Position numbers and translations under genes: made by a program. A stretch of DNA of 64,000 nt. It comes from an uncultured Dehalococcoidia bacterium (GTDB lineage Bacteria > Chloroflexota > Dehalococcoidia > UBA6926). The stretch spans positions 24,497 through 88,496 of the forward strand of contig CAYOPL010000009.1 in the NCBI GenBank assembly GCA_964405845.1, given 5' to 3'. Of the stretch, positions 34,601 through 63,935 are shown piece after piece (the first letter of the stretch is position 1; the number at the start of each line of letters is the position of its first letter). The notes below the pieces were generated by a model. That model was not told the origin of the DNA. It saw only the letters and a program-made list of their open reading frames with translations, and did not search any database.

Positions 34601-37600
34601 GGGCTCGGTGGCCAGTCTGACGCTGTAGTCGGCGCTGTCGCTCTCCTCCACCGCCAGCGAGAGAGGGTCGAGCATGATGCCCAGCGGGTCGTTGTCATTG
34701 ATGGTCACCGGCAGGTCGCTGTCGACGTCGTCGTACTCCGCGCCTGCCGCGGCGTGCGCCAGCGTGACGCTTTCGGCGACGCCGTCGTCGTCGTGGGCCG
34801 CCGTCACTGAGATCGACCGGGGCGTGTTCCAGTTATGGGGAGTGAAGGTGAGGGTGTTGTTGTTCAGCCTGGCGCCCGAGAGGGTCAGGTCCGTTCCGGC
34901 GTGGCCGCTGACAATCACTGTCACCTCGACCGTGGGTTCGGTGGCCAGCGCGACAGTGTAGCCGGCGCCGGCGGCGTCCTCCTCCTCCAGCGTCAGCGAC
35001 GTGGGGCTCAGCACGACGTCCGCGGTGTCGTCGTCGGCGATAGAAATAGTGAGCTCGTCCGTGGTCCCGGCGGTGACCCGCTCGTCCGGCATGGTCCCGA
35101 ACTCCAGCTTCACGCCCTCGTCATCATCGTCGATGAAGTCCTGCGTGGCGGCGAAGGTGAAGGTCTGGGACGTAGTTCCGCCGTCTGTGAAGGTGACGTG
35201 CTCCGGCACACCCGAGTAGTCGGCGGCGCTGCCCGTTCCCTGCAGCGTCTCGTTTATGGGGATGATGATGGTGCGCTCCGGGTCCTTGTCCACCGTCACG
35301 GTTACGACCTGGCTCGCGCCCTCGGCCACGGTGTAGGCCGACTCGGAGAAGGCGACCGTGACCTCGGGAAAGTCGTCGTCGATTATCTTGACGACCGTGT
35401 CGTCCCTGGCCCCCTCGGTTATCCGTTCCGGCAGTCTCGAGCCGAATTCCAGCTTCACCTCCTCCTCGTCGTCATCTATGTCGTCTTGCGTCGCCACGAA
35501 GGCGATGGTCTTCAGCGTCTCGCCCGCGTCGAAGGTGACTTTGCCCGGCACGGTGTAGTCGGCGTCGCTGGCCATCACTCGGTTCGTCTTTGTGATGGGA
35601 ATCTCGACGGCGCGCTCGGGATCGGCGTCCAGGGTGATGGTGACGTTGATCGTTTGCCCCTCGTTGATGAGATAGGTGTCCTGCCCGAACTGCACTTGCA
35701 CGTGAGGAAAGTCGTCGTCGTTGATGCTCACGACTGCTTCGTCCGTCGTGCCCGGACTGACACGCGCGTCCGGCATGACGCCGAATCCCAGGATCACACT
35801 TTCGTCATCGTCGTCCACGCTGTCCTGGGTGGCTGTGAAATCGATCGTCTTTAGGGTCTCGCCGGATTCAAAAGTGACGGTTCTCGTCGACACGGAGAAG
35901 TCTGCGGCGCTCGCGCCGCCTTGGCGTGTTGTCGTGATCGGAATCTCCAGTTCGCGCTCGGGATCCGCGCTCAGCGAGACGTTGACATATCCCGTCCCGC
36001 CCTCATCAACGGTGTACTCCGACGAGGCGAACGACACGGACACCACCGGGTCGTCGTCGTCATTGATGGCGACGCTGCTTGCGCCCGGCATCCCGCGGCT
36101 CACCCGCTCCGGCAGCGCGCCGAACCCGATCCGTACGCTTTCATCATCGTCGTCCACAGTGTCATCGACGGCCGAGAAGGTCAGCGTCGTTGATGTCTGG
36201 CCGGAGGTGAAGGTGACTTTCTCCGGCACGGAGAAATCGCCGTCGCTCGCGCCGTCCTCACCGACTGCGGTGATGAGGATCTCGACGGTGCGCTCCGGGT
36301 CGGCGTTCAGGGTCACTGTCACGTCCACGGTCCCGCCCTCGTCCGCCGAGTAGGACGCCTGCCCGAACGACACCTCCACCTCCGGGTGGTCGTCGTCGGC
36401 GATGCTGACCGTCGTCTCGTTGGTGGACCCTTCGCTCACCTTGGCGGGCAGTGACCCGAAGCCGAGCAGCACGCTCTCGTCGTCGTCGTCCACAGTGTCG
36501 TTGACGGCCGTGACGGTGAGCGTCGCCGACGTCTGGCCGGAGGTAAATGTGACTCTCTCCGGCACGGAGAAATCGCCGTCGGTCGCCCCGCCCTGGGGCG
36601 TGGCCTCGATGGGAATGACGACGATGCGCTCCGGGTCGCCGCTCAGGGTCACCGTCACATCCACGGTTCCGCCCTCGTCCGCCGAGTAAGACGCCTGCCC
36701 GAACGACACCTCCACCTCCGGAGCGGCGATATCTGTGATATGCACGGTGGACTCGCGCGTCGTTCCCTGCTGCACGCCGGCGGGCGGCGTTCCGAATCCG
36801 AGCAGCACGCTCTCGCCGGCATCGTCGTCGCCGTCGGCCATGGCACTGACGGTGAATGACTGCGATGTGTCGCCCGCGCTGAAGGTCACGTTCTGTGGGA
36901 CGCCGTCGTAGTCGCCGGCGACCGCTCCTCCCCGGGGCGTGTGCGTGACGGGGATCGTCACCGTGCTGTTCGGGGCGGAGGTGAGCGTCACGTCCACGCT
37001 GACCGTTCCGCCCTCCAGCACGGCGTACGAGGACGCGCCGAAGTCGACCTCCGGCGCGTCATTGTCCACGATGGTGATGACGGCCGTCTCGTTCGTTCCC
37101 CCGGACAGCAGGTGGACGTCGACGAGGCTGAGCGTCAGGCTCTCCCCCTCGTCGTCGCGGGTGTCGTCCACGAGCGTGACGGTGAAGGTTTTGGAGGTGT
37201 CGCCGGGGGCGAAGACCAGCTCGTCCGTGCTCAGCGTGTAGTCCGCCTCCGTGGCTCCGCCGCCGCCGGTGACCGTTATGGGCAGCGTGACCGTGGTTTC
37301 GAGGAACGCCTCGTCCAGCGTCACCGTTACCTCGACGTCGTCGCCCTCTGTGGCCTGGTACGTGGCCGCGTCGAAGGAGGCGGTGGCGGTCTCGATCAGC
37401 TTGAGGTCGACCTCGTCGCCATCCTCCCAGCCGAGTTCCAGATCATCCCATTCGACGTAATGGCTGAAGACTGAATCGGCCTCGCTCAGGATCATGCGCG
37501 TTCCGTCCAGAACGAGCGCGCCGCGGTCAAGAAACGACTGGGGAACGTCACTTACGAAGGCAATGTACATCGGTTGACTCCGGGAGACGGGATAACTGAT

Positions 37601-50022: not shown

Positions 50023-50053
50023 GCCCCTTACCAATCGTTCGGTGGGGGAAGCG

Positions 50054-51499
50054 ATGCGGATTGCGTGCGTGCTCATCACGCATCTGAGGGCGAAGACCGA
50101 GATGCGGCGGCGGCCGGATCTGGCAGACAGTCCCGCCGTGATTGTCGCGCGCGGGCAGAAGAAGCCCCTCGTAGTCGACTACTCGCCCGCCGCGTCCCGA
50201 ATCAGCATCGGCATGACGCCGGAACAGGCGCTCTCCCAGCAGGCGGACACCCTAATCCTTGAGGCAGACGAGCCAACCTATCGCGGTGTCTTCCGACAGA
50301 CTCTCACTGCGCTGCAACAGGTCAGCGACCAAGTGGAGGACGCGGAACTCGGAACCGCTTACGTGCGGGTGGCCGGACTGGATGAAATGTATGGCGGCGA
50401 GGACGTGCTGTTCACCGCATTGCACCGGGCGGTCCCGAACTACCTTCAAGCACGCATCGGCGTTGGAGAGGGCAAGTTCCCCGCATTCGCCGCCGCCGTT
50501 GCCAGTCCTCCGCTCGGGGTCACCACCGTCCCGTCCGACGCCGCGAAGTTCCTGTCCCCACGCCCCGTTGATCTGTTGCCGATAAAGGGGGAAACCCGTT
50601 TTGGTCTGCACCGATTCGGCCTCCGCACGCTGGGTGACGTGGCTGCGATGTCTGAGGCCGTGTTGGTGGACCAGTTCGGAACTGAGGGCAGCGCGGCATG
50701 GCGGCTGTCGCACGGCAACGACGACGACCCTCTCATTCCGCTTGCTTATGAGGAATCCGTCTCGGAGCGCATGTCCCTCCCGTTCGCGTCGAGGTCCCTG
50801 GAACTCGTCACCGTCACGGTGGACGCCCTCCTTAAGCGAGCATATGACGCGCCGCGAATGCGCGGACGCTACGCCGGAGCCGTCACCCTCCACTGCCTTC
50901 TGCTTAACGCGCCTATGTGGGAGCGGACGGTGCGGTTCAAGCAGCCCGCCGGTTCATGGGAGCGTGCATCGGAGATCATGGCGACGCAGATGGCGCAAGA
51001 CCACCCACTTGCGCCCGTCGAGGAGGTCAGCGTAACGCTGAGGGACTTGGGCGGCGATGTAGGAATGCAGATGGGCCTGCTGCATGACTACCGGCGTGAC
51101 AGACGTGAGCGGCTGTTGGAGGCGGGCAGGGGACTCGGCGACCGTCTCAGGGGCGGCAGCGCCCTCTACCAGGTTCTGAACGTTGCGCCGTGGCACCCCG
51201 CGCCGGAGATGCGCGCCCTTCGGGTGCCCATCGATTCGTCCACGGGCGACGATGCGACACCCCTCGCCATGCCGACTGCGCTGGCCGTGCAGGAGGGTTC
51301 GAATCGTCAGCCGATGGCCGTTCAACTCGGCAAGAAGTGGCACAGAATCGTCAACATCGAAGACCGATGGAGCTTCGATCTCTGGTGGCTGCCACACCCT
51401 CTCACCCGAACGTATTACCGTGTCAGCCGCGAGGACGGCTCCGAGCTGATTCTGTTCCGGGATCGGCGCGACGACTGCTGGTACCAGCACGTGCCCTAG
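50054..51499 (+). CDS. imuB: ImuB-like Y-family polymerase paralog (mutasome subunit)
   Basis: ATG at 50054 (MRIACVLITHL...). DinB-like fold lacking obvious catalytic acidic residues. Immediately upstream of dnaE2 and downstream of the LexA box. Confidence 0.7.
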   Translation: MRIACVLITHLRAKTEMRRRPDLADSPAVIVARGQKKPLVVDYSPAASRISIGMTPEQALSQQADTLILEADEPTYRGVFRQTLTALQQVSDQVEDAELGTAYVRVAGLDEMYGGEDVLFTALHRAVPNYLQARIGVGEGKFPAFAAAVASPPLGVTTVPSDAAKFLSPRPVDLLPIKGETRFGLHRFGLRTLGDVAAMSEAVLVDQFGTEGSAAWRLSHGNDDDPLIPLAYEESVSERMSLPFASRSLELVTVTVDALLKRAYDAPRMRGRYAGAVTLHCLLLNAPMWERTVRFKQPAGSWERASEIMATQMAQDHPLAPVEEVSVTLRDLGGDVGMQMGLLHDYRRDRRERLLEAGRGLGDRLRGGSALYQVLNVAPWHPAPEMRALRVPIDSSTGDDATPLAMPTALAVQEGSNRQPMAVQLGKKWHRIVNIEDRWSFDLWWLPHPLTRTYYRVSREDGSELILFRDRRDDCWYQHVP

Positions 51500-51512
51500 A
51501 CACTGCCGTACC

Positions 51513-54500
51513 ATGACATCCCCATACGTTGAGTTGCACGCTAAGAGTTTCTATTCCTTCGGGGAAGGAGCGGCGCACGTCCATGAACTACTGGCACAGG
51601 CAAAGGAATACGGCTATGACGCGCTCGCGCTGACGGACACGAATCTCTGTGGTGCACTGGAGTTCGCGCGGCTTGCCAAGAGCCTTGGGGTCAAGCCGAT
51701 CACAGGTGGCGAACTGATCCTCTGTGACGGCTCCCGCATCACGCTGCTGGCAAAGAACAAGCGGGGCTACGCCAACATCTCAAGACTGTTCACGCTCGCC
51801 AACGGTGTTGACCGCCGCGAACCGCGACTTGATCCCATCCATCTGCCTGACCACGCCCAGGGTGTCATGCTCATCGCCGGCGGACGCGATGGCCAACTCT
51901 CTCAACTCGCCCTCAACGGCCGTCATGACGATGCCCAAAAACTCCTGCGTGACTACATGGACTGGTTCGGCTCGGATTCCGTCTTTATGGAGTTGCAGCA
52001 GAACTTCATTCGCGGCGATACGGCGCGGAACCGCGAACTCGCCCGCCTTGGCAGGGATGCGGGAGTCTGCCTCGTTCCCACCAACGACGTCCATTACCAC
52101 GCGCCGGAGCGGTACCGCCTTCAACACGCCCTTGTCGCCGCCAAGCACAACACCACCATCGACCAGGCCCTCCCACATATTCGCCCCAACCACCATTTCC
52201 ACCTGAAGCCTGCTGAGGCAATGGCGCGACTCTTTGAGAGGGAATATCCGGGAATCATCGACGTCACACGCCGCATCGCTGAGGAGTGCGACTTCAATCT
52301 GGCCGACAGCATCAACTACGAGTTGCCGGAGCCGGACGTGCCCGCGGGGTACACCACGGACAGCTACCTGCAACGCCTCTGCTTTGAGGCGGCCATGCGG
52401 CGCTACGGCGGCATCTCACAGCGCGTCCAGGACCGGCTTGGCGAAGAGTTTGCCCTCATCAAGCGGTATGGCATCGCGGGTTTCCTGCTGCTGTATCGGG
52501 ACATCGTGCTACTGGCTCAGCAGATCATGGAGGAGCGAGGGCTGACTCCACCGGAGGTTCCATTAGAAGAGAGACCGCCGGGCAGGGGGCGCGGCTCGTC
52601 CGTCGCACTGCTCGTCGGCTACCTCATTGGCATCAGCCACATCGACCCCATCAAGTGGGACCTGACGCTGGAGCGATTCATCTCTGAGGACATGTCCATG
52701 CTGCCCGACATCGATCTCGATTTCCCGCGCGGACTGCGCGATGAGCTCATCAATCGCGTCCACCAGCGATATGGCCCGAACTACGCGGCGCTCACCGGCG
52801 CGATCAGCACCTACTCCGTCAAGGGCATCATTCAGGACATCGGCAAGGCGCTCGGCCTCCCGAAAGAGGACCTCACCCTCCTCTCCAAGCAGTTGCACTC
52901 CCACCATGCCGATGACCTCAAAGAGGAGATGCTGCGCCTGCCCGCCTATAAGGACCGGGTTGAGTCGCAGGGCTGGCGAGAACTGATTGAACTTGCGCCC
53001 CAGCTCATGGACGCCCCCCGCAGTCTCGGCCAGCACGTCGGCGGCATGATCCTCAGCAGTTCCCCCATCTCTGAGATGACGCCCATCCGCGAGGGCGCAA
53101 TTGGCGGGCGCTACATCATCGACTGGAACAAGGACACCATCGCGGATGCCAACGTCGCCAAGATCGACCTGCTCTCGCTGCCCGTCCTCGACCAGTTGGA
53201 GCAGGCGCTCGACCTCATCGAGCAACGGATTGGCAGTCGCCCCGACCTCAGCCGCGTGGAGCCGGACGACAACAACGTTTACGACATGATTAATGAGGGT
53301 CATGCCAAGGGCGTCTTCCTGCTGCAGTCACCGGCGCAGCTCAAGATGGCTCAGCGCCTCCGCTCCCGTAATCTCCTTGACCTCGCCTATCAGGTCGCGC
53401 TCATCCGCCCTGGCGTCGGCGTGCAGGGCAGTTCCGTGAGCCAGTTCGTGGAGCGCTATCGGCACGGCGTGGAATGGAACTACGACCATCCCCTCGAAAG
53501 GCGTGCGCTGGAACGCGGCTACGGCATCATCGTCTGGCAGGAACAGGTCGTGCAGTTGTTGGCGGACGTTGCCGGCGTGACGACGGCGGAGGCGGACGAG
53601 ATTCGTCGTGCCTTTGGCCGTTCCAACAATTCCGCCCTGATTGCCATGCACTGGCAGCGATTTCTGGAGGGAGCACGACGAAACGGGGTCTCAGAGGAAA
53701 CAGCTCAAAAAATCTTCGGCAAGGTCAATGGCCACTATATGTTTCCCGAGAGCCATAGCCACGCCTTTGCCATCACTGCCTATCAAGCCGCGTGGCTCAA
53801 GCGCTACCACCCGCTGGAGTTCTTTGTGACCCTCATCAACAATCAGCCGATGGGTTTCTATCCGATGGAGACGCTCAAGCAGGACGCGCGGCGGTTTGGC
53901 GTTCCGTTCCTCAATCCCTGCGTGAACCGCAGCCAAATCCAGTGCGTGCCGGAGGATGGAGCGGTGCGTCTGGGGCTTGGCCTCATCAAGGATGTTGGCG
54001 AGGCGGCTGCGCGTGCCATCGTGCAGGAACGAGAGGCAAGAGGCCGATATGGCAGTCCCGCCGACCTTGTGAGCAGGACGGGAATCAAACAGCAGGCCGC
54101 CGCGTCGCTTGTCATGGCGGGAGCGTTCGATGATGTCGCGTCCAACCGCAGGCACGCCCTGTGGGACATTGGCCTCGCCAACCGCCCGCTCAGGAGCGGT
54201 CAGCGCACCCTCGCGGCGTCCACAGATCATGCCATCCCCCGACTCAAGGATTTCTCCGAGTACGAGAAGATGGTTGGTGAGTATCGCGTCATGGGCATCT
54301 ACCCGCGCGGCCACGTGATGGAATTCGTGCGCCCGACATTGAATGACCGTGTGCTCCGCACGTCCGACGTGTACGACGTGCCCGAAGAACAGGAGGTGCT
54401 TGTGGCCGGGTGGCCCATCGCACGGCAGCACCCGCGTGGAAAAGACGGCACGGTCTTTGTCACCATCGAGGACGAGTGCGGCGACGTTCAAGTCATTCTC

Positions 54501-54662
54501 TGGAAAGACGTGTTCGCCCGTTCCCGTCGCGCCCTACGCAATCGCGTCATCATGGTTCGGGGCATTGTCTCCCGCTGGGATGGCACGACGAACATCATTG
54601 CCTCCGAGATTCGCGCCATCAACACCGATGTGCCCATGCCGAACGCCCACGACTGGCACTGA
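51513..54662 (+). CDS. dnaE2: error-prone DNA polymerase III alpha-subunit paralog DnaE2 (ImuC)
   Basis: ATG at 51513. N-terminal PHP domain (VELHAKSFYSFGEGAAHVHELLAQAKEYGYDALALTDTNLCGA), polymerase core, 1049 aa, coupled to imuB. Confidence 0.85.
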   Translation: MTSPYVELHAKSFYSFGEGAAHVHELLAQAKEYGYDALALTDTNLCGALEFARLAKSLGVKPITGGELILCDGSRITLLAKNKRGYANISRLFTLANGVDRREPRLDPIHLPDHAQGVMLIAGGRDGQLSQLALNGRHDDAQKLLRDYMDWFGSDSVFMELQQNFIRGDTARNRELARLGRDAGVCLVPTNDVHYHAPERYRLQHALVAAKHNTTIDQALPHIRPNHHFHLKPAEAMARLFEREYPGIIDVTRRIAEECDFNLADSINYELPEPDVPAGYTTDSYLQRLCFEAAMRRYGGISQRVQDRLGEEFALIKRYGIAGFLLLYRDIVLLAQQIMEERGLTPPEVPLEERPPGRGRGSSVALLVGYLIGISHIDPIKWDLTLERFISEDMSMLPDIDLDFPRGLRDELINRVHQRYGPNYAALTGAISTYSVKGIIQDIGKALGLPKEDLTLLSKQLHSHHADDLKEEMLRLPAYKDRVESQGWRELIELAPQLMDAPRSLGQHVGGMILSSSPISEMTPIREGAIGGRYIIDWNKDTIADANVAKIDLLSLPVLDQLEQALDLIEQRIGSRPDLSRVEPDDNNVYDMINEGHAKGVFLLQSPAQLKMAQRLRSRNLLDLAYQVALIRPGVGVQGSSVSQFVERYRHGVEWNYDHPLERRALERGYGIIVWQEQVVQLLADVAGVTTAEADEIRRAFGRSNNSALIAMHWQRFLEGARRNGVSEETAQKIFGKVNGHYMFPESHSHAFAITAYQAAWLKRYHPLEFFVTLINNQPMGFYPMETLKQDARRFGVPFLNPCVNRSQIQCVPEDGAVRLGLGLIKDVGEAAARAIVQEREARGRYGSPADLVSRTGIKQQAAASLVMAGAFDDVASNRRHALWDIGLANRPLRSGQRTLAASTDHAIPRLKDFSEYEKMVGEYRVMGIYPRGHVMEFVRPTLNDRVLRTSDVYDVPEEQEVLVAGWPIARQHPRGKDGTVFVTIEDECGDVQVILWKDVFARSRRALRNRVIMVRGIVSRWDGTTNIIASEIRAINTDVPMPNAHDWH

Positions 54663-54723
54663 GCCGCGATAAACTGCTTCAACGAGAAGTTGAAAGTACC
54701 GCCAAGGCGGTCAGTTCAAAAAG

Positions 54724-55392
54724 ATGTGTGGACGATTCAGCCTGATCAGCGACCTGAGCGAACTGCAGCTGCGGTTTGACTTCGAGAATCCCCTCACCGA
54801 CTATGCGCCCCGCTTCAACATCTCGCCCACGCAGGACGTGCTCACAGTGCGCTGGGAGGACGGGCATAACGTTGGGGAATATATGCGGTGGGGACTCATC
54901 CCCTCGTGGGCGAAGGACATGTCCATCGGCAACAGGGCCATCAACGCGCGAGCGGAGACCCTGCCGGAAAGACCAATGTTCCGCGCGGCATTGCGCCGCC
55001 GCCGATGCCTCATCCTCGCGGACGGCTTCTATGAGTGGACGGGCAAAGGCGAGGCAAGGCAACCCATGCGCATCCTTCTGAAGACAGGTGAGCCATTCGC
55101 CTTCGCCGGGCTGTGGGAGACCTGGACAAACCCCGAAGGCGAGACCATCCGCTCCTGCACAATCGTCACTACGACGCCGAACGACATCGTGCGCCCAATC
55201 CACGACCGAATGCCTGTCATCCTGCCGCCAGAATCTGAAGCCGTCTGGCTAGACCAAGCTAACGAGGATGCCGCCGTGCTGGGTGAACTTCTGATCCCTT
55301 ATCCGCTGGACACCATGGAAGCCTACCCCGTCTCGACGCTCGTCAACTCCCCCGCTAACGACACGCCGGATGTGATTCTCAGAGCGTCATAG
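54724..55392 (+). CDS. SOS-response-associated peptidase (SRAP/YedK, abasic-site DNA-protein crosslinking)
   Basis: N-terminal MCGRF (catalytic Cys2) and conserved SRAP core (FNISPTQ...WGLIPSW...FYEW). Sits downstream of imuB-dnaE2. Confidence 0.8.
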   Translation: MCGRFSLISDLSELQLRFDFENPLTDYAPRFNISPTQDVLTVRWEDGHNVGEYMRWGLIPSWAKDMSIGNRAINARAETLPERPMFRAALRRRRCLILADGFYEWTGKGEARQPMRILLKTGEPFAFAGLWETWTNPEGETIRSCTIVTTTPNDIVRPIHDRMPVILPPESEAVWLDQANEDAAVLGELLIPYPLDTMEAYPVSTLVNSPANDTPDVILRAS

Positions 55393-55594
55393 AGTTAGGT
55401 TCCTGATCGCTCAGGAACACAAGACGGCCCATCTTGGGTGACCGGGTATTCCGGTATCAAGTGTCTGATCAAAGAATGAGAACTTTTGCGAATACTTTGC
55501 TTGCTCGGAATCAAGAACCCTTGACCGCTTGCATGTAGTTATGACAAGTATGTCGTAGCTCGAACGTACGAAACCAATACAAAGGAATCCTGTA

Positions 55595-57559
55595 ATGAAG
55601 AATCAGTCACCCCTTAAAGATGGGAAGGATGCACACACTCCCGTCGCGCTCTATGCAAGAGTGTCCAGCGATAGGCAGGACGTCGATCTGTCCGTCTCGG
55701 CTCAACTGAGAGCGCTGAGAGACCATGCGGCCAAAAACGGGTATGTGGTCGCAGGGGAATACATCGATGAGGCCGAGAGCGGCCGAAACTCTAAGAGACC
55801 GCAGTTCCGGCAGATGATTGATGATGCCACGCAAGCACACGCTCCTTTCAAGGAGATACTCGTATGGAAATTCTCACGATTCACCCGCAAGCGCGAGCAC
55901 GCAGTCGCATACAAGTCTCTGCTGCGTCGCCGCGGTATCAGGGTTGTCTCCATCACGGAGCACGCCGACGAAAGCCCTCTCGGCAAGTTGATGGAAGGCA
56001 TTATCGAGAGCGTGGATGAGTTCTACTCTGAGAACTTGGGCCAAGAGGTCATGCGTGGTCTGCGAGAGGCTGCGACCCGCGGCTACTGGGTGTCGCCTCA
56101 GAAGCCTATCGGCTATCGCAAGGTGAGGGTGGATGACAACGGCAAGATGCGGCCCAAGCTGGAACTTGACCCACCCAACGACGGAATTGTACGGCGCATC
56201 TTCGATATGGCGCTGAATGGTAAGACTCCGATGGACATCGTCAAGACCCTGAACGACGAAGGAGTCCGCTCACCGAAGGGCAAGCAGTGGCGCAAGTCTC
56301 GACTGACCGCAATCCTCACCAACGAGGTGTACACCGGGACACTGATCTGGGGTGCGAAAGCACAGGACGAGGGCGAAGTGGTACGCGTCGAGAACGCCTT
56401 TCCGGCTATCGTCACGCAGGCCGAGTTTCGCCGGATCAAGAAGATGCTCAACCTCCGGTCACCCAAGCATATGCACCCTCGGCGCACATCGAGCCCCTAT
56501 CTCTTGAGCGGTCTGCTAACGTGCGCGATGTGCGGGAGTTCCATGACTGCGTCCGAGGCGAAGAGTGGCAAATACACGTATTACGTGTGCCAGACGATGC
56601 TCACTAAAGGCGCGCAGGCCTGTGATACGCCGCGGCTTAACGCCAAACACTTTGAGCGGCTGATCATAGAACAACTACGGACCAATGTCCTCACTGAGCA
56701 GAACATTCGCCACTTGGCCATCACTCTCGATGAAGAAATGGATGGCCAAGCCCATGCATTGCGGGAGAAACTACATACCACAGACGCCGAATTGGGTGAG
56801 GTCAGTCGCCGACTCGACACGCTCTATGAAGCGCTAGAGACGTCAGAACTTGATCTTGCCGATGTCGCGCCCCGGATCCGCCAACACCGTGAGCGGCAGG
56901 CCCAGTTGGAGGCCGCTGTCGACGAGGCACGAGCTGGCTTGGCAGAACGACGCAGGATTCTCGACCGGGTTGAAACCATCACAGCATTCGCGAAGGAAAT
57001 GGGGGAGTTCCTTCGAACGAGTGAGATTACGGAAACGCGGTCATTCATTCGCTCATTCGTCAAAGGCGTCGTCGTAAGGGCAGGCAGGGCAGTGATCACC
57101 TACACCGTTCCGATGCCGGATGATAGCCCGATTGGCCAGTCCCGGGTTGCTGATCTAAGGCTGGAGGAGCTTAGCACAGAAGAAGTTCGCAATACAGACC
57201 TGTATGGTGGGCCGGACTGGACGAAATCAAGAACCGATGCCGATTCCGACGTCACCCCGTCGCTGGGCATGGGGACCGTGTACGTCAGCGTCGCCTCGTC
57301 TCCCTCCACCTCGATGCCCTCCACGAAGTTGCGGATGAGCGCCTTCTTCTCCGGGATCGTCCCCTCCTTCAGGAAGTCCCGGAAGTCCGCCACGTACCGC
57401 GCTATCTCCTCGGTGTCGGGCAGGGCTACCCTGCGCTGCTCCAGCCGGGTCTCCGCGTCCTCCCGCGCAGCCTCCAGTTGCTCCTCACGGTGCCTCAGGG
57501 ACATGATGCGGGGCGACAGGACCTCCAACGTCAGGTCGCTCGTCTCTATGGCCTCGTAG
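55595..57559 (+). CDS. large serine recombinase (integrase) paralog 1; ORF probably over-extended at the 3' end (true end likely ~57125-57300)
   Basis: ATG at 55595. Resolvase catalytic domain VALYARVSSDRQD...SVSAQ, recombinase and zinc-ribbon domains (CAMCGSSM...YYVC), coiled coil, ...ITYTVPMPDD near residue 510. Downstream, the frame runs stop-free antisense to the convergent paralog. Confidence 0.75.
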   Translation: MKNQSPLKDGKDAHTPVALYARVSSDRQDVDLSVSAQLRALRDHAAKNGYVVAGEYIDEAESGRNSKRPQFRQMIDDATQAHAPFKEILVWKFSRFTRKREHAVAYKSLLRRRGIRVVSITEHADESPLGKLMEGIIESVDEFYSENLGQEVMRGLREAATRGYWVSPQKPIGYRKVRVDDNGKMRPKLELDPPNDGIVRRIFDMALNGKTPMDIVKTLNDEGVRSPKGKQWRKSRLTAILTNEVYTGTLIWGAKAQDEGEVVRVENAFPAIVTQAEFRRIKKMLNLRSPKHMHPRRTSSPYLLSGLLTCAMCGSSMTASEAKSGKYTYYVCQTMLTKGAQACDTPRLNAKHFERLIIEQLRTNVLTEQNIRHLAITLDEEMDGQAHALREKLHTTDAELGEVSRRLDTLYEALETSELDLADVAPRIRQHRERQAQLEAAVDEARAGLAERRRILDRVETITAFAKEMGEFLRTSEITETRSFIRSFVKGVVVRAGRAVITYTVPMPDDSPIGQSRVADLRLEELSTEEVRNTDLYGGPDWTKSRTDADSDVTPSLGMGTVYVSVASSPSTSMPSTKLRMSAFFSGIVPSFRKSRKSATYRAISSVSGRATLRCSSRVSASSRAASSCSSRCLRDMMRGDRTSNVRSLVSMAS

Positions 57560-58776
57560 AGCTTCCCAAGACGCTTCCTCACGTCGGATAGCTCCGCCTC
57601 GACGACCTCCAGCCTACCGGAAAGCTCACCGGCCATCGCGTCTATCTCCTCCGCCACCAGCTGCACCAGCTCGGTAATGGTCTCCTCGGTCAGGATTCGC
57701 TCCCTGATCTTCTCCACCACGAAGGTCTCCAGCTTCGGGGCGTTCAGGTAGCGTGCGCTGCACGTCCCCGCTCCCTCTCTGAACAACGTGCCGCAGATGT
57801 AGTAGGCGAACTGGCCGCTCTTGGCTCCCTGGGCCGAGTAGGGCCTGCCGCACACCCCGCACTTCAGCAGCCCGCTCAGGAGATACGGGCTTCCCACCCT
57901 TGCTGGCCTCTGCACCTTCGGGGCTCGCTCGCTCATCGCCTGCTGCACGTCCTCGAATAGCTCCCTCGACACCAGGGCGGGCCACGCTCCCTCAACCCTC
58001 ACAGGCTCCTGGGCCTTATCGTTCTTGCCTTTGACTCCCCAGACGGCAGCGCCGGTGTACGCCTCGTTGCGCAGCACGTAGTGGAGTCCGCCCTTGTACC
58101 AGCGCTTCCCCCGGTTGGTGACGCCCCGGTCGTTCAACTCCCTGCACAGCTCCTTGAGGCCGTAGCCCTGGAGCGACTTCTCGAATATCTCCTTCACTAC
58201 GGGAGCGGTGGCCGGGTCTACCTCCAACGAGGGGCGCTCCTTCGCTCCGTCCTGCACCTTGATCTTCCGGTAGCCGAAGGGAGCCTTGGAGCCGAGGAAG
58301 AAGCCACGAGACGCGGCCTCCCGCATTCCCCGGACGACTTCTTGTGCAAGATTCTCGCTGTAGTATTCATCGACGCTCTCGATGATCCCCTCCAGCAGTC
58401 TGCCGGTGGCGTTGTCCTCGGCCTGCTCGGTGATGGACACGACGCGGATGCCCTTGCGCCGCAGCTGGGCCTTGAACGCCACGGCGTGCTCGCGCTTGCG
58501 GGTGAACCTCGAAAACTTCCAGACGAGAATCACGTCAAAGGGCGCCTGGGGCTTACTGCCTTCCTCGATCATCTCTCTGAACTGGGGCCGGTCGGCGACG
58601 CGGCCGCTCTCGGCCTCGTCCACGTACTCCCTGGCCACGGAGTAGCCGTTGGCCTTCGCGTACTCCTTGAGTGCCCGTAACTGGGCGGACACGGACAGGT
58701 CCACGTCCTGCCGGTCGCTGGACACCCTGGCGTAGAGCGCCGCCGGCGTCAGCGGCTGTAGGTGCTTCTTCTCCAT
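57100..58776 (-). CDS. large serine recombinase (integrase) paralog 2
   Basis: ATG at 58776 with AAGGAGG RBS. AALYARVSSDRQD...SVSAQ, zinc ribbon CGVCGRPY...YYIC, ...TLTYTVPMPSDG tail. Its 3' end (57100-57300) overlaps the 3' region of paralog 1 on the opposite strand. Confidence 0.8.
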   Translation of the reverse strand: MEKKHLQPLTPAALYARVSSDRQDVDLSVSAQLRALKEYAKANGYSVAREYVDEAESGRVADRPQFREMIEEGSKPQAPFDVILVWKFSRFTRKREHAVAFKAQLRRKGIRVVSITEQAEDNATGRLLEGIIESVDEYYSENLAQEVVRGMREAASRGFFLGSKAPFGYRKIKVQDGAKERPSLEVDPATAPVVKEIFEKSLQGYGLKELCRELNDRGVTNRGKRWYKGGLHYVLRNEAYTGAAVWGVKGKNDKAQEPVRVEGAWPALVSRELFEDVQQAMSERAPKVQRPARVGSPYLLSGLLKCGVCGRPYSAQGAKSGQFAYYICGTLFREGAGTCSARYLNAPKLETFVVEKIRERILTEETITELVQLVAEEIDAMAGELSGRLEVVEAELSDVRKRLGKLYEAIETSDLTLEVLSPRIMSLRHREEQLEAAREDAETRLEQRRVALPDTEEIARYVADFRDFLKEGTIPEKKALIRNFVEGIEVEGDEATLTYTVPMPSDGVTSESASVLDFVQSGPPYRSVLRTSSVLSSSSLRSATRDWPIGLSSGIGTV

Positions 58777-58792: not shown

Positions 58793-59191
58793 TCAGTTGG
58801 TCGTTATCGGTGTCCAGACTATCCCGTCAACGTGCTCAAAGTGGCGATCCGCCGATACCAGGTCGGCGCCCGTTTCCATTGCGTGGGCCGCAATCCAGAC
58901 ATCGTTCGTCGGGATAGGCCGCCCCTTCGCCTTCAGCGCAGTCATTACCCTTGAGTAGCGGTCGGCGGTCACCGGACCCACGGGAACGAAGGACACATAG
59001 GTACGTTCGAGGAAGGACCGAAGCTCTGCCATGTTTCGCTCGAAGTGCGTACCCTGTCGGAAGCCGTATAGCTGCTCGCCCACCACAACAGCCGAGAACA
59101 GCACCTCTTCGGCGTCCTGTATCAGGCTTCTCACCTGCTCGTTGCCCCGCATGAACGCGGAGTAGGCGTTGGAGTCCAGAAGAATCCTCAT
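58793..59191 (-). CDS. vapC: PIN-domain toxin VapC
   Basis: ATG at 59191 overlapping the antitoxin stop (ATGA). MRILLDSNAYSAF... with conserved acidic residues (D8, E, D...D) of PIN domains. Confidence 0.75.
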   Translation of the reverse strand: MRILLDSNAYSAFMRGNEQVRSLIQDAEEVLFSAVVVGEQLYGFRQGTHFERNMAELRSFLERTYVSFVPVGPVTADRYSRVMTALKAKGRPIPTNDVWIAAHAMETGADLVSADRHFEHVDGIVWTPITTN

Positions 59192-59472
59192 GCCCACGCT
59201 GCCTCGTCCACGGTTCCGAAGACCTCAAGAGCGCTATCGAAACTCTCAGCCTCTTCCTCGCTCCATACACCGAACAGGTCGTCCAATGCAGACCCTATGG
59301 CGTTGGGGTTTCTCTTGCTGTCCGTTATCCCCGCTCCCTTCCTCAGCAGCCTCAGCGCGGCCTGATTAAGGGAGATTCCCTCCCGCCTGGCGAGGCTGTG
59401 CATAGCGGCGCTCAGCTCGTCGTCGAACCCTCTGACGGTGAGTTGGTTCACGTCACGCTCCTTGTGAGTCAT
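59188..59472 (-). CDS. vapB: VapB-type antitoxin (RHH/AbrB-like DNA-binding N-terminus)
   Basis: 94 aa immediately upstream of and coupled to vapC. LTVRGFDDELSAAMHSLARREGISLNQAALRLL. Confidence 0.5.
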   Translation of the reverse strand: MTHKERDVNQLTVRGFDDELSAAMHSLARREGISLNQAALRLLRKGAGITDSKRNPNAIGSALDDLFGVWSEEEAESFDSALEVFGTVDEAAWA

Positions 59473-59539: not shown

Positions 59540-59992
59540 CTACGCAACCAGCCGCCACACGAGCAGGCCAACGACTACGAGCAGCACGACCACGGCCAGG
59601 CCAAGCCTGACTATCCAGCGTCGCGTCCGTCCGTGCTCGCCCATCTCGTCCCCATACATCCTCTCCATCTCCCTGTGGGCCTGTATAGCGGCGTCTTCGG
59701 ACTTCCTGGCCGCATCCCGCTCCCGCTCCACCTCCGACGCTCGCTCCTCCGACTCGGACAGCTTCCGCTCCAACTCCCGCATCGTCCGCTCCAACTCGTC
59801 CTGTCTGACGATGGACCGGCGCAGCAACTCCTCGTCGGTGATGTACTCTCCCTCCATCCGCACGTAGACCCTGCGGCCCTCGCGGCGGACATCGACCTCT
59901 CCGGTCCTGATCTTTCGGTCGAGGGTGGACAGGGAGACCTCCAACTCCTCGGCGGCCTCCGCTTTCGTCACCCACCGGACACGCTCATTCAT
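59540..59992 (-). CDS. excisionase-family HTH protein with coiled coil and C-terminal TM, 150 aa
   Basis: ATG at 59992 with GGAGGAA RBS. VTKAEAAEELEVSLSTLDRKIRTGEV matches the excisionase/MerR-type HTH (cf. LTVEEAAELLGVSRSTVYRLIRSGEL). Acidic and basic coiled coil. Hydrophobic tail RWIVRLGLAVVVLLVVVGLLVWRLV. Confidence 0.5.
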   Translation of the reverse strand: MNERVRWVTKAEAAEELEVSLSTLDRKIRTGEVDVRREGRRVYVRMEGEYITDEELLRRSIVRQDELERTMRELERKLSESEERASEVERERDAARKSEDAAIQAHREMERMYGDEMGEHGRTRRWIVRLGLAVVVLLVVVGLLVWRLVA

Positions 59993-60293: not shown

Positions 60294-61997
60294 TTAGCCC
60301 TCTACAGGACGGGGACGCATCCGGTGGTAGAGACTGTCCCACTGGTAGGCGCTCAGCCCAGACAGCGCCAGTCGGGGGGAGGACGGCTCCCACAAGGGAC
60401 GCCAGGACTCCCCCAGTATCCCCCTGCGTGACAGCACGAACATGCAGGACACCAGGACAGGCACGGTCATAAGAGTCATGCTGGCCGCTGTGCTCACGTA
60501 GGTCTCTTCGACCTCCTCGGTGTCCACGACGAACAGGGTGATGGGGAACGGCGGCTGGTCCTCCCCTGGCTCGTTGGAGTGGTAGTACATGGTGTAGGGT
60601 CTCAGGCGGGCCATGACTCCCTGCGGGTGGCGGGCTCTCAGCTCGTGTTCGAGGTAGAACGGCACGTGTAGCCCGGCGGTGATGAGATGCCCCACGGCGT
60701 CGGGGGCGATGGCCGACTGTCCCCAGTTGTAGGCCCGGTCGGAGCGGGCGGTGGGAACGGACCACACCAGCTCGCTGTCGGGGTTCTCCCTGGCCTCAGC
60801 CTGAAGCTTCGAGAGGACCCACGTGATGCCGTCGGCGTGCTTCGTCTGCCTCGCCCACGTCGCGATGCGGTGCCCCACGTGACGGGGGCGTCCCTCTTTG
60901 TCGGTGGTGAGATCCGTGCTCCAGATGCCCCGCGTGGTGGGAAGCTCGGCCCGGTCCCGGTGGGTGACGTAGCGTATCCCCTCGCCGGACAGCGTGTAGC
61001 GCACCTCGCCCCGTTTGCCCAGGCGTTCGATGAGGCCCCGGGTCTTCACCAGGCTGCGCATCATCTGACTGACCCGCCCGTCGGAGACGCCGAGCCAGGT
61101 TGCCAGGTGCTCACGGGGGATCATCGGATGGTCGGTGATCAGGTCAAGCGTCCGCTTCTCAGCGGGGCTGAGGCCGAAAGCTGGCGCAGCCTGCGTCATG
61201 CGTTCAGGCTGCGGCATGGAGGCGCGTTTCCGCTCCGGCGACTGGCCAAGCCCTCCGCCGCGCTTGCCGTAAGCGGTCACCGACTCCAGCGGGTAATACG
61301 TAAGTCCGAACAGTCCCGTGGGTTGGCACCAGACTCGGCGATTTCGTCGTTCCAGGGCGTCCCTGGACTCCACGGCGACGTAGCAGTCGCTCAGGTCGTT
61401 GTTGATGCAGTACCTCGCCGTCCTTCGCAGCTCCCATGCGCTGGGCACAAGGATCAGCACCGTACCGGGGCGACGCGAATAGCTGTACTGCGCTATAGCC
61501 TTCAGCCGGTCGTAGAGAGACCGGCGTCGCAGAGCCAGACCCTGGCGCACCACGCCGAAGTCACGGCCGTCGTGGAGAGTGATGGTGGCGTCGAAACGGC
61601 CCCGGCGGTGGAACTCCACACGGGAACGCAACCCGTCCGTGCCGGGGGACATGGTGGCGGCCAAGCGGTAGACGGCGGCCACCGCGTCCATCCGGCGGAG
61701 GAGAAGCGTGAGCCACTCCCTGGACATGGGGTAGGCCCGCACGAAGTCGGAGGGCGTGTCGAAGTCCAGGAAGTCGGCGGACTCGCGAACGCCCTGCGCC
61801 GTGAGGCAGTATCGTGCACTGGACGGCAGGTGCACGGTGCCGTGGGTGGCCTTCCCCACGATACCGTCGGTCAGCAGCTCGGACAGCCTGCGGTGGACGG
61901 TGGCGTGGGGCTCGCCCAGGATGAGCGCCAACTCCGTCGATTCGACGAACGGCATCCGGCTGAGGGCGTCGAGCAACTGATGGTCTGAGAGGGCCAT
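60294..61997 (-). CDS. replication-relaxation family protein, paralog of 27621..29183
   Basis: Start taken at ATG 61997 (MALSDHQLLDALSRMPFVESTEL...) by alignment with the paralog. A GTG at 62102 would add a Cys-rich 35-aa N-terminus. Shared motifs RMDAVAAVYRL, ITLHDGRDFGV. Confidence 0.5.
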   Translation of the reverse strand: MALSDHQLLDALSRMPFVESTELALILGEPHATVHRRLSELLTDGIVGKATHGTVHLPSSARYCLTAQGVRESADFLDFDTPSDFVRAYPMSREWLTLLLRRMDAVAAVYRLAATMSPGTDGLRSRVEFHRRGRFDATITLHDGRDFGVVRQGLALRRRSLYDRLKAIAQYSYSRRPGTVLILVPSAWELRRTARYCINNDLSDCYVAVESRDALERRNRRVWCQPTGLFGLTYYPLESVTAYGKRGGGLGQSPERKRASMPQPERMTQAAPAFGLSPAEKRTLDLITDHPMIPREHLATWLGVSDGRVSQMMRSLVKTRGLIERLGKRGEVRYTLSGEGIRYVTHRDRAELPTTRGIWSTDLTTDKEGRPRHVGHRIATWARQTKHADGITWVLSKLQAEARENPDSELVWSVPTARSDRAYNWGQSAIAPDAVGHLITAGLHVPFYLEHELRARHPQGVMARLRPYTMYYHSNEPGEDQPPFPITLFVVDTEEVEETYVSTAASMTLMTVPVLVSCMFVLSRRGILGESWRPLWEPSSPRLALSGLSAYQWDSLYHRMRPRPVEG

Positions 61998-62213
61998 AAG
62001 CCTGACTGTAGCGAGAAAGCGCCCTCGTGGGCAATCACCACATGACAGCGACTCCGATTGGCACCGCCAGACTGCTGAGAAGCATTGATCGCAAGGAGTC
62101 ACCTACGGCTAGTCGTGCTCGTAGCCAGCCCGCGCATATCGTCCATGCGTCTCTCTAGTTGAAGGCTTTTAGACGTTGATTCACCGCTACTTGAAGTATA
62201 TACTTCCGAGTAG

Positions 62214-62420
62214 TTGGAAGGGAGTAGCAGCTTGAAAGGTACTGAGAACGGACAACGTGGAACTTTCCTGGTGACGGCGTATAGGTGTCGTTGTGGACAC
62301 GAGTGGGTTCCAAAGAAACTTCGCAGCGCGGAACGTCCACGGGTTTGCCCAAAGTGCAAGAGCGCCAATTGGGACAGGCCCTATCAATTTCGGAGGGGAG
62401 GTGCTCCTAGCCAATCATGA
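62214..62420 (+). CDS. small zinc-ribbon protein, 68 aa
   Basis: CRCGHEW...CPKCKS. Its stop overlaps the MTase start (ATGA). Lies in the lower-GC island. Confidence 0.3.
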   Translation: MEGSSSLKGTENGQRGTFLVTAYRCRCGHEWVPKKLRSAERPRVCPKCKSANWDRPYQFRRGGAPSQS

Positions 62421-63340
62421 GTATTCTTGAAGCACTCAACTCTGCCGACTTGCTGACTTTGGACAAAGGCCACATTCTTCTTGGAAACGCATTCGACTGG
62501 CTGGAGAAGGCCGAACGGAACTCGATTCACGCCGTGGTGACCGACCCGCCGTACGGGTTGGTTGAGTACTCACCATGTCAACTCGAAAAGCTCCGCAACG
62601 GCAACGGAGGGGTTTGGCGGATACCCCCGGCGTTCGACAACGCCGCCCGCAAGCCCGTTCCTAGATTCACAGTGCTAAATGACGACGATAAGGAGCGTCT
62701 TGAGGCGTTCTTTGATCACTTTGCCGCCCTGCTGATGCCGGTCTTGGTTCCCGGTGCTCACGTCTTTATAGCGACCAACCCTCTAGTTTCCCACTTCGTC
62801 TATCTGCCCTTCGTCAAGGCGGGCTTCGAGAAGCGAGGAGAGATCGTCCGTGTGGTTCAAACCCTGCGTGGTGGTGACCGTCCCAAGAATGCTCACGTTG
62901 AGTTCTCCTCTGTCTCGGTGATGCCCCGGTCCTGCTGGGAACCGTGGGGCCTGTTCCGCAAGCCATGTGAAGGACGTGTCCAAGACAATCTCCGCAAATG
63001 GAAGACAGGGGGGCTTTCGCGTGTGTCTGACACTGAACCATTTCGGGATCTCATTCAATCCTCTCCCGCTCGGGGACTCGAAAAGAAGGTAGCTCCTCAC
63101 CCGACGCTAAAGCCCCAAGACTTCATGCGGCAACTTGCACGGGCTTCTCTCCCGTTGGGCGAAGGCGTAATCCTTGACCCGTTTATGGGTTCCGGCTCTA
63201 CGATCGCGGCAGCTACCGCTTGTGGTCTCGACAGTATAGGTATCGAGATTGACCCGGAGTACTTCAAGATGGCGCGTACAGCTATTCCTCAGCTAGCGAA
63301 GTACGTCCCTAACGGAAGTAGGCATAATGGTCAGAAATGA
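62417..63340 (+). CDS. DNA methyltransferase, beta-class N4-C/N6-A type (motif IV DPPY before motif I)
   Basis: ATG at 62417. VVTDPPYGL (motif IV) near the N-terminus and DPFMGSGSTIAAA (motif I/AdoMet) near the C-terminus. ~53% GC against ~67% background. Confidence 0.8.
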   Translation: MSILEALNSADLLTLDKGHILLGNAFDWLEKAERNSIHAVVTDPPYGLVEYSPCQLEKLRNGNGGVWRIPPAFDNAARKPVPRFTVLNDDDKERLEAFFDHFAALLMPVLVPGAHVFIATNPLVSHFVYLPFVKAGFEKRGEIVRVVQTLRGGDRPKNAHVEFSSVSVMPRSCWEPWGLFRKPCEGRVQDNLRKWKTGGLSRVSDTEPFRDLIQSSPARGLEKKVAPHPTLKPQDFMRQLARASLPLGEGVILDPFMGSGSTIAAATACGLDSIGIEIDPEYFKMARTAIPQLAKYVPNGSRHNGQK

Positions 63341-63935
63341 CTGGTTCGATTCATCGGTGCCGCTGCCTCCAGGTCTAACTGTCGGCGCGATCCGTAGGTC
63401 TATAGACTATGTCCAGCGTGAGCTTGCGGAGTTGGTGGAAATCTACGATGAGCAGATGAACGTATTCAGCGCAATTGTCGGTATCTTCGGTACGCGAGCA
63501 CTAGATTCGGTCAGCAACTACGAGAAGCACAGGAACCTTGACACCGCCCAGCAACGGTTTCCCGATCTGCGTCGAAGAGGGTCCGGTTCGAACCCCACGG
63601 CCAACGACTCATTGGAGAGTAAGGCAAGCAAGAGGCCGTGGGCGCTGCAATCGCATTTCGACCATCCTGGATGGTACATCGTCTGGCGGTATCTTGTTGA
63701 CCCTACCGAGACGTTAGAAGCTGGCAGGCCGGTCATTGTTTGGCGCGTGGACGTCGCATTCATCAACAAGGAAGATTGGAAGTACGAATCAAGCAGGGCA
63801 GGACCGGCGGGCGGAGGACGCACCCATACGTTCGGTCTACATCGCCCGGCAACCAAATTGCGGGGCAAGTCAGTCTATCGACGACGCGATGTCGTCCTAG
63901 TTGGTGGGAAGCCGATCCCTGCAAATGGCGATTAG
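63327..63935 (+). CDS. hypothetical protein translationally coupled to the MTase; candidate restriction endonuclease partner
   Basis: ATG at 63327 overlapping the MTase 3' end by 14 nt. 202 aa, no recognisable family. The putative PD-(D/E)XK-like stretch VDVAFINKEDWK is weak. Confidence 0.3.
   Translation: MVRNDWFDSSVPLPPGLTVGAIRRSIDYVQRELAELVEIYDEQMNVFSAIVGIFGTRALDSVSNYEKHRNLDTAQQRFPDLRRRGSGSNPTANDSLESKASKRPWALQSHFDHPGWYIVWRYLVDPTETLEAGRPVIVWRVDVAFINKEDWKYESSRAGPAGGGRTHTFGLHRPATKLRGKSVYRRRDVVLVGGKPIPANGD

Follow-up and report, generated by a model that had tools for sequence, protein, structure and literature searches.

Among described systems, the nearest to the locus considered here appears to be that of the Dehalococcoides ssrA genomic islands, in which a large serine recombinase (LSR) of about 540 residues, DsiB, has a tRNA-like 3' end as its target and islands accrete in tandem (McMurdie et al. 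2011, PMC3146451). Large serine recombinases, CcrA/CcrB or CcrC, also belong to the staphylococcal cassette chromosome SCCmec (as described in PMC3146451), and for the Listeria phage integrase a shift of the zinc-ribbon motif (ZD motif) between the attachment sites attP and attB has been described, the canonical rule being that the only partner accepted by a serine-integrase attP is a site whose two arms are both short (PMC3783163). Here we analyse a stretch of 64,000 nucleotides (the window) from an uncultured Dehalococcoidia bacterium (assembly GCA_964405845.1, contig CAYOPL010000009.1), in which two LSR genes, LSR-A and LSR-B, converge and overlap in antisense at their 3' ends. We hold, with a probability of roughly 80%, that this pair is the joint between two serine-integrase units stacked at one tRNA-type attachment site. 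A junction of two integrated elements had been among the options listed by an earlier reading of the letters alone (the original prediction), and it is one of the two that the comparisons below bear out.

The likeness to the ssrA islands, which for DsiB itself is one by description, lies in the same bacterial class, in integrative and probably mobilizable islands driven by a large serine recombinase, in an integrase gene that adjoins its attachment (att) site and is encoded on the other strand from the RNA gene (which also applies to the A lineage here), and in the accretion of several islands in tandem at one site. Unlike those islands, which target ssrA and carry a 20-bp direct repeat, the elements here would use ordinary tRNA-type sites with a CCACCA core; they lack a small second recombinase of the DsiA type, their backbone is made of Replic_Relax and HTH_17 proteins rather than RecF, ParB and Mom homologues, and two lineages of opposite polarity give convergent, overlapping integrase open reading frames (ORFs), which are laid out as follows.

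55595..57559, plus strand: LSR-A ORF, open over 654 amino acids (aa), of which the first 540 aa (55595-57214, ending ...LYGGP) form the conserved recombinase part.
57215-57559, plus strand: read-through tail of LSR-A, 114 aa, the antisense of LSR-B.
57100..58776, minus strand: LSR-B ORF, open over 558 aa, of which the first 524 aa (57205-58776, ending ...SVLDFVQSGPP) form the conserved part.
57103-57204, minus strand: read-through tail of LSR-B, 34 aa, the antisense of the LSR-A 3' end.

Both ORFs lie where the original prediction had put them, with the domains it had named. The Resolvase family (PF00239) matches LSR-A with E = 7e-32 and LSR-B with E = 2e-33, the motif YARVSSDRQD occurs in both, and Recombinase (PF07508) and Zn_ribbon_recom (PF13408) score above the gathering score in each, giving the composition of a serine integrase, namely an N-terminal resolvase-type catalytic domain and a C-terminal recombinase domain with a zinc ribbon. 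Between the zinc ribbon and the sequence TYTVPMP lies a stretch of about 110 residues, rich in E, L and R, that looks coiled-coil-like. The identity, judged by eye at about 50%, amounts to 51% over 504 aa (BLASTP, E = 0), and the homology of the two proteins ends a few residues past TYTVPMPxD. The antisense overlap of the convergent genes is likewise real and measures 460 bp, each TYTVPMP segment being read in antisense by the other gene: the TYTVPMPDD codons of LSR-A at 57098-57124 enclose the LSR-B stop codon (57100-57102), and the LSR-A ORF crosses the TYTVPMPSD codons of LSR-B (57259-57285) as ...GMGTVYV.... The conserved parts of the proteins overlap by 10 bp only, 57205-57214. The suggestion that the genes share sequence at their 3' ends does not hold, as the overlap is positional and not homologous: exact-seed searches found no inverted repeat around the joint, the TYTVPMPxD codons of the two genes match at 18 of 27 bases, and the two att arms described below match at 13 of 24 bases, a level that only 95 of 20000 random pairs of 24-mers from the window reach. 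Composition shifts at the joint, from a GC content of about 57% across LSR-A to about 64.5% across LSR-B.

The point at which each enzyme ends can be read from its relatives. A protein search with LSR-B returned thousands, of which the best 120 (83-93% identical) were compared; these are conserved to ...SVLDFV(K/Q)S(G/S)PP, with a few exceptions that end 1-2 residues earlier, and beyond S(G/S)PP they split into unrelated tail classes of 0 to >300 aa, giving lengths from 523 to 868 aa for the same enzyme. In the window this boundary falls on the SGPP codons of LSR-B (57205-57216) and on ...LYGGP of LSR-A (57206-57214), and the sequence past it in both ORFs is an unselected read-through tail. 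The LSR-B tail has 13 aa in the attP state and 0 to >300 aa once integrated, and that of LSR-A has 16 aa at a tRNA-Val gene and 114 aa in the window. The LSR-B ORF always reads across the crossover because the left attP arm consists of the last ~10 integrase codons. The plus-strand ORF is indeed free of stops until 57559, because the place of its natural terminator, which lies inside tRNA-Val, is taken by LSR-B in antisense, a GC-rich gene that is stop-free in this frame for 114 codons. The original prediction had left the C-terminus of LSR-A unclear; its conserved end can be placed at ...LYGGP (57214), and the sequencing error that had been considered is not needed. We also considered that the LSR-B tails are antisense tRNAs and rejected this, ARAGORN finding no tRNA beside any LSR-B and the neighbours having short T-loop-like arms only.

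For all counts we had 82 related loci in hand, 80 genome loci with close LSR-B relatives having been fetched, all from metagenome-assembled genomes (MAGs) of Dehalococcoidia, Chloroflexi or SAR202; the 82 LSR-B junctions that were classified comprise 81 loci and the window. Thirty of the 82 genome loci (long-read MAGs) have the convergent joint in a register that does not differ by a single base, and so do 7 metagenome contigs, whose B-type enzymes are more divergent; the joint is therefore more than a product of chance. Four more loci have the partner reduced to a 3' fragment. At locus L002 each LSR has its own Replic_Relax/HTH_17 module in mirror orientation, so that two complete elements meet at that joint, and abutting elements or their remnants are evident as well from the long arms beside 43 of the 82 LSR-B copies and from truncated partner LSRs.

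The A-type partners in L018, L030, L055, L039, L043 and L047 are 5'-truncated or 3' fragments of 70-130 codons that have kept the att-proximal arm, and they look like fossil integrase ends buried under later insertions.

The att site itself lies at the boundary and is made up of the following parts.

57185..57208, plus strand: P arm of LSR-A (P_A), GTTCGCAATACAGACCTGTATGGT, a long, attP-type half-site ending in TGGT, the complement of the ACCA end of a tRNA.
57209..57210, either strand: probable 2-bp crossover, GG on the plus strand and CC on the LSR-B coding strand, within GC[CC]ACCA.
57211..57235, minus strand: P arm of LSR-B (P_B); the coding strand reads GGTTCTTGATTTCGTCCAGTCCGGC and encodes ...SVLDFVQSG.

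Several features of the LSR-B family define its arm. A 16-base core directly ahead of the boundary, GGTTCTTGATTTCGTC, shows no difference among 78 of the 82 loci and a single deviating base in the other 4, and the last ~30 coding nucleotides before the joint are invariant even at third codon positions, whose conservation upstream ranges from 0.33 to 1.0; directly past GCCCACCA nucleotide conservation drops from about 1.0 to 0.35-0.5. Because synonymous sites are invariant at the end of LSR-B yet variable upstream, the constraint on these ~30 nucleotides acts on the DNA as such. The arm recurs in inverted form, as GACTTGACGAAATCAAGAACC with CCACCA before it, 9.8-11.5 kb upstream of the LSR in L020, L021, L028, L029, L033, L056 and L081, and in L065 and L074 the two arms stand side by side as an intact P-CC-P' site. 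Conservation extends to ...GCCC in every attR of the family and begins at CCACCAGACTT... in every attL, limits that would place the exchange at the CC of GC[CC]ACCA. The attP reconstructed from these sites has 52 bp, GGTTCTTGATTTCGTC(A/C)AGTC C(A/G)GC[CC]ACCA GACTTGACGAAATCAAGAACC; its inverted arms measure 21 bp each, and the 10-bp spacer between them has CC at its centre. It thus has the imperfect inverted arms and 2-bp crossover of a serine-integrase site; L065 and L074 contain it whole, and elsewhere it is divided into attL and attR. The att-like inverted repeats that the original prediction had proposed to look for were absent at the joint as exact repeats and present as imperfect arms, and the second interval it had named, between SRAP and LSR-A, holds half-site-like motifs only. 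Its proposal of an att site within the end of an integrase gene fits in a twofold manner, as the site lies inside the 3' ends of both ORFs, with the putative crossover GG (57209-57210) in the GGP codons of LSR-A and the SGPP codons of LSR-B.

The P arm of LSR-A was placed by alignment with locus L084, where the corresponding arm, AGTTCGCAAAACAGACCAACATGGT, is followed by tRNA-Val, and it has a GAAC motif at +21-24 from the core. This motif separates two kinds of arm, standing at +21-24 in long element arms and at +15-18 in short arms, whether these are a real tRNA T-loop or T-loop-like neighbours, a shift that resembles the ZD-motif shift between attP and attB of serine integrases. The partner arm at the LSR-B junctions is long in 43 of 82, short in 13 and something else in 26; the joint in the window has two long arms.

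For the A lineage, the association with tRNA genes can be observed directly. Relatives of LSR-A (62-79% identical) have C-terminal tails that are antisense tRNA translations, for example ...GIRTRDL... and ...SQLSYSP..., and at 17 loci ARAGORN places a convergent tRNA gene (Val, Gln, Ala, Ile, Arg, Glu or Met) so that it overlaps the conserved end of an A-type LSR or lies within ~30 bp of it. The lineage thus appears to integrate at the 3' end of stable-RNA genes, its P_A arm supplying TGGT, the complement of ACCA, and so restoring the tRNA end. The closest relative of LSR-A (79% identical) occupies the equivalent locus of a related genome (L084/L169), in the order imuB, dnaE2, SRAP, LSR-A, then tRNA-Val(cac) and tRNA-Met on the opposite strand, with no LSR-B. 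This orthologue has 551 aa in L084 and stops 16 codons past the joint, inside the antisense of tRNA-Val. The window and L084 agree through ...ACAGACC...ATGGTGGGC and then diverge, the tRNA (GATACAGGACTCGAACC) coming next in L084 and LSR-B in antisense (CGGACTGGACGAAATCAAGAACC) in the window. No tRNA gene is present anywhere in the window, and Rfam finds no known RNA in it. Between LSR-A and its L084 orthologue the ratio of nonsynonymous to synonymous substitution rates (dN/dS) is 0.07, and LSR-A is therefore under purifying selection. The synonymous divergence (dS) is 1.85 for LSR-A and 0.61-0.73 for imuB, dnaE2 and SRAP, and the GC content of LSR-A is about 57% against about 62% in its flank; to judge by these values, LSR-A evolves as a module separate from its neighbours.

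From these observations we propose the following course of events. Both LSR lineages would use the same type of core, formed by the last two acceptor bases and the ACCA of a tRNA-type site, in opposite polarity: the A-type gene would abut the 3' end of the tRNA convergently, its P arm ending in TGGT and restoring the tRNA ACCA, and the B-type gene would occupy that end of its element which is farther from the tRNA-like arm, with a P' arm that begins with ACCA. With both units at one site, the P arms would become joined at the common dinucleotide as P_A-GG-rc(P_B), where rc denotes the reverse complement, and because both P arms are coding, each ORF would continue as the antisense of the other. 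In the most likely history, LSR-A first stood beside tRNA-Val(cac), as it does in L084, and the LSR-B element would then have inserted at the joint between tRNA-Val and LSR-A; the comparison with L084 favours LSR-A as the probable older resident. Such an insertion predicts tRNA-Val at the far end of the LSR-B element, near 66-68 kb. On the plus strand one would expect there the inverted P' arm, GGTTCTTGATTT(C/T)GTCAAGTC-TGGT-GG, followed by antisense tRNA-Val(cac) (GCGATACAGGACTCGAACC...), and the inverted P' arm (GGTTCTTGATTTYGTCAAGTC and then TGGTGG) should come within ~15 kb beyond 64 kb. Excision would yield a circle with the joint ...GTCCAGTCCGGC-CC-ACCAGACTTGAC... and a restored tRNA-Val/LSR-A joint, ...ATCGC-CC-ACCATACAGGTCTG...; either enzyme may still be active.

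A number of points weigh against this proposal. The window stops short of the far end of the LSR-B element and of the tRNA-Val predicted there, and none of the LSR-B-type attL sites in hand abuts a tRNA recognised by ARAGORN, the left arms being T-loop-like only; that a tRNA is the native target of LSR-B is suggested by the CCACCA core, by these T-loop-like arms and by L084. Since the joint between tRNA and LSR-A has one short and one long arm, an insertion there requires relaxed specificity or heterologous recognition, and if the attP x attB rule is applied strictly, both orders of arrival are non-canonical, except where one enzyme takes the arm of the other for a short one. Given its dS, set against that of its neighbours, it is doubtful that LSR-A was simply inherited vertically together with the flank. 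A search of 6.5 kb upstream did not define where the LSR-A unit ends on the left, and neither an excised circle nor an empty site was observed for this genome.

The attP x attB rule leads to the alternative that survives best, in which the stacking is the same and the order is reversed: the LSR-B element would have been at the tRNA first, and the LSR-A unit would have entered the attR of B by taking P_B for a tRNA 3' end. The state seen in L084 would then derive from a later excision of B. We regard this order as possible, and hold it only tentatively. Read from the core (GCCGGACTGGACGAAAT...), the P_B arm agrees with the tRNA-Val arm (GCGATACAGGACTCGAACC) in 8 of its first 12 bases, GGAC at +9-12 among them, and it contains a T-loop-like GATTTCG, so that for LSR-A it could count as a legitimate short-armed attB, which would keep the attP x attB rule; a dS about 2.5 times that of the flanking genes likewise means that LSR-A need not be an old resident. 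However, related genomes have LSR-A beside SRAP and tRNA-Val without any B element, and several of the A-type partners adjacent to B are 5'-truncated or reduced to 3' fragments, as one would expect of older residents.

One could also speculate that the overlap is functional in itself, either as a tail switch, in which integration, excision and stacking rewrite the C-termini of the integrases and could thereby sense or switch the state of integration, or as a composite attP; the two variants together we consider improbable. If true, the former would provide a built-in control of directionality without a separate factor, and a composite attP bound by both enzymes would allow joint movement of two units or chromosomal rearrangements from tRNA to tRNA. 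The proposition that the two genes form one functional module of a composite element, with the joint as a hybrid attP carrying one arm for each enzyme in the manner of CcrA/CcrB of SCCmec, strikes us as decidedly unlikely. It draws on the two long, attP-type arms around the central dinucleotide, on a pairing that occurs in ~40% of LSR-B copies, on the intactness of both ORFs and on the purifying selection acting on LSR-A. Yet LSR-B is without a partner in more than half of the 82 loci and has near-perfect inverted P and P' arms of its own, with the intact homotypic attP of L065 and L074; A-type LSRs also stand alone beside tRNAs, the A-type partner in L002 brings its own mirror-image Replic_Relax and HTH_17 genes and so makes up a second complete element, and the partners belong to varying lineages, 47-64% identical to LSR-A of the window and sometimes truncated. 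The co-directional operon, always together, of an obligate pair of the CcrA/CcrB type is not what is found here.

Of the two weakest explanations, an invertible switch, in which two recombinases flip a segment between inverted sites and which the original prediction had also offered, could appeal to convergent paralogous genes with a quasi-palindromic site between them, and is nevertheless very hard to credit: the window lacks the second inverted copy of the site that would have to flank such a segment, related loci of the LSR-B family have their second att arm ~10-11 kb away in the same CC polarity, which is the geometry of integration and excision and not of inversion, the core CC/GG is not palindromic, and both proteins are large serine integrases with a zinc ribbon rather than small invertases. 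An artefact, be it a chimeric join at repeated integrase sequence or a missed stop codon, would suit an uncultured organism and a plus-strand ORF that runs 114 codons past its conserved end without a stop, but it is barely conceivable given the same junction, to the base, in 30 independent long-read MAG loci and 7 metagenome contigs, a stop whose absence is accounted for by the replacement of the tRNA-Val sequence, and the same kind of read-through tail (~100 aa) in the database proteins P0198 and P0222 (643 aa).

Stacking of the two units, the reading we prefer, also bears comparison with the other known systems. Composite tandem SCC islands are known, as is promiscuity of CcrAB. As in SCCmec, LSR islands here stack at one chromosomal site, hybrid att sites stay usable for further insertion, and two paralogous LSR genes can occur together; however, ccrA and ccrB are co-directional, co-transcribed and both required, whereas the genes here are convergent, lie in separate units and belong to lineages each of which also occurs alone, and the target of SCCmec is the 3' end of rlmH (orfX) and not a tRNA-type site. 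With the phage serine integrases (Listeria A118/LI, phiC31, Bxb1, SPbeta; PMC3783163) the two enzymes share the order of resolvase, recombinase domain and zinc ribbon and an attP of roughly 50 bp with inverted arms around a 2-bp crossover, and in both cases host-type arms have the distal motif nearer the centre by about half a helical turn, 6 bp here and 5 bp for the LI integrase (PMC3783163). No phage or plasmid LSR of the collections searched exceeds 33.5% identity to the LSRs of the window, and PDB matches are weak. In contrast to the phage enzymes, the attP arm here lies inside the integrase coding sequence, so that the C-terminal tail varies with the state of integration, and most LSR-B copies stand beside long, element-type arms and not canonical short ones, which suggests a pairing of sites less strict than the attP x attB rule would have it.

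Genomic islands of tyrosine integrases at tRNA genes, and integrase genes that span attP, such as that of the SSV1-type fuselloviruses, offer a further parallel. They too integrate at tRNA 3' ends that element DNA restores, have att sites that overlap the integrase ORF and form tandem arrays at tRNA hot spots. Their enzymes belong to a different superfamily with a different chemistry; in the present elements only 2 bp and the shared ACCA are duplicated, with no long direct repeat, and only a dispensable-looking C-terminal tail of the integrase is exchanged, the gene not being split.

The left side of the LSR-A unit is less distinct than the joint.

55393..55594, plus strand: low-GC spacer between SRAP and LSR-A, with half-site-like motifs, TTTTGCGAAT near 55483 and GGAATCAAGAACC at 55507-55519.

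This spacer has a GC content of 51-52% against 60-63% upstream and is ~70% conserved with L084, and it may be the decayed left end of the unit. An inverted copy of the P arm, and motifs resembling TATTGCGAAC, were sought within 6.5 kb upstream, and no convincing site was found. We leave open, and do not adopt, a 1.7-kb mobile element consisting of the integrase only, which could be drawn from an arm with 3 mismatches at 55504.

On the other side of the joint, LSR-B is the integrase of an integrative element of roughly 9-11 kb, which starts at 57210 and runs rightward past the end of the window. Its further genes are these.

58793-59197, minus strand: PIN toxin (PF01850), accessory cargo.
59188-59472, minus strand: ribbon-helix-helix (RHH) antitoxin (PF22513), accessory cargo.
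59540..59992, minus strand: HTH_17 (excisionase-like) DNA-binding protein, a weak match to PF12728, backbone.
60294..62102, minus strand: Replic_Relax/MarR-type protein (PF13814), backbone.
62417-63340, plus strand: N6/N4 DNA methyltransferase (PF01555), cargo.
63327-63935, plus strand: ORF of 202 aa, cargo.

Homologues of the Replic_Relax protein occur in 75 of the 82 loci (the best ~80% identical); in 72 of them the gene is located upstream of the LSR and runs in the same direction. HTH_17 homologues are encoded upstream of it in 66 loci, and the HTH_17 protein is a candidate directionality or regulatory factor. The PIN/RHH pair, directly upstream of LSR-B, recurs at that position in just 8 of 82 related loci and is therefore accessory and not part of the backbone. 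The gene order of the element is the same in L001 and L002. A conserved module of Replic_Relax, HTH_17 and LSR is thus combined with variable cargo (toxin-antitoxin, methyltransferase, restriction-modification and others), as in an integrative island. The methyltransferase and the 202-aa ORF are 97.7% and 96.5% identical to cargo of L021 (2986-4501), whose element has its attL ~2.4 kb beyond these shared genes, and the far end of the element in the window can on this basis be predicted near 66.3 kb.

The cargo is thus ~97% identical to that of L021 while the LSR-B genes are only ~92% identical, which suggests that cargo modules may have been exchanged recently between elements.

The LSR-B family was found at 488 places in bacterial and archaeal genomes sampled at one genome per species, with up to 8 copies in one MAG, and the element is multi-copy in uncultured Dehalococcoidia. 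A scan of viral contigs for the LSR-B P' arm gave no match, and a provirus status is therefore without support. As to a tRNA at the element, the P' arm starts with ACCA past the crossover and the left arms are T-loop-like, with no ARAGORN tRNA at any attL in hand.

The attL of the LSR-B elements in L029 (~1060-1100) and L056 (~1660-1700) has as its left arm a long, element-type arm, GTTCGCAGTACGGTA...GGC-CC, which in one frame has the ending ...KVRSTVRPGPP, as the C-terminus of an A-like recombinase would, and whose core polarity is that of LSR-B; no recombinase gene is detectable upstream of it. The commonest neighbour of LSR-B copies other than an LSR (20 of 82 loci) is a conserved sequence, ~95 bp in its commonest form, that contains ...ACGGTAGATACCGCCATCTTCGAGATGTSGCTCGG... 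and translates as TVDxTIFEMWLG; it lies downstream of LSR-B relatives in L001, L008, L010, L020, L046 and others, at about 11570-11900, and in several loci a similar half-site-like motif recurs ~150 bp further on. It has no Rfam match and no LSR within 10 kb. We considered that these tails (classes B and C) are the P' end of A-type elements, which fits A-type proteins, and rejected this for the wrong core polarity beside LSR-B.

Taken as a whole, the overlap is real and recurrent, yet it follows from known integrase biology; what is peculiar to the architecture of the LSR-B family is that an att arm is part of the integrase ORF. The literature searched held no description of this element family, which appears to behave as a known kind, that of serine-recombinase integrative elements stacking at tRNA-type sites. 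It is abundant in uncultured Dehalococcoidia, where a comparison of genomes suffices to read off its att sites. The natural pairs of integrase and att site, with a 52-bp attP, a CC crossover and long and short arms, may provide raw material for the discovery of recombinase tools, and since most copies adjoin the arm of another element, the arm data could serve to test how strict the attP x attB rule is in nature. They also expose a trap for annotation, in that integrase ORFs running through att sites gain arbitrary C-termini and can overlap a tRNA or another integrase in antisense, and gene callers may drop the partner gene.

This happens in L002, where the convergent partner recombinase (11221-13206) is dropped, and in P0198 and P0222 the ~100 residues of junk tail are reported as protein; both are annotation artefacts of ORFs that run through att sites.

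The hot spot, linked to tRNA, adjoins an imuB-dnaE2-SRAP mutagenesis cassette (50042-55392 of the window) that is syntenic in related Dehalococcoidia and whose downstream neighbour varies among related genomes: SRAP is followed by LSR-A with tRNA-Val and tRNA-Met in L084/L169, by another A-type LSR with tRNA-Arg(ccg) in L168, and by no LSR in L166 and L167, where a remnant resembling a long arm (ACCGACAGTACTATATTGCGAAC), or unrelated genes, are found instead. No clean empty site was obtained through the SRAP orthologues of L084, L166, L167 and L168. This variation points to a hot spot of rearrangement, or to a cassette travelling with the LSR. Further to the left, the window has a sharp dip in GC content, to 47%, at 47.4-47.8 kb, and an ORF of 2806 aa on the minus strand (31634-40054), at a position comparable to that of a large fn3-repeat protein in L169.

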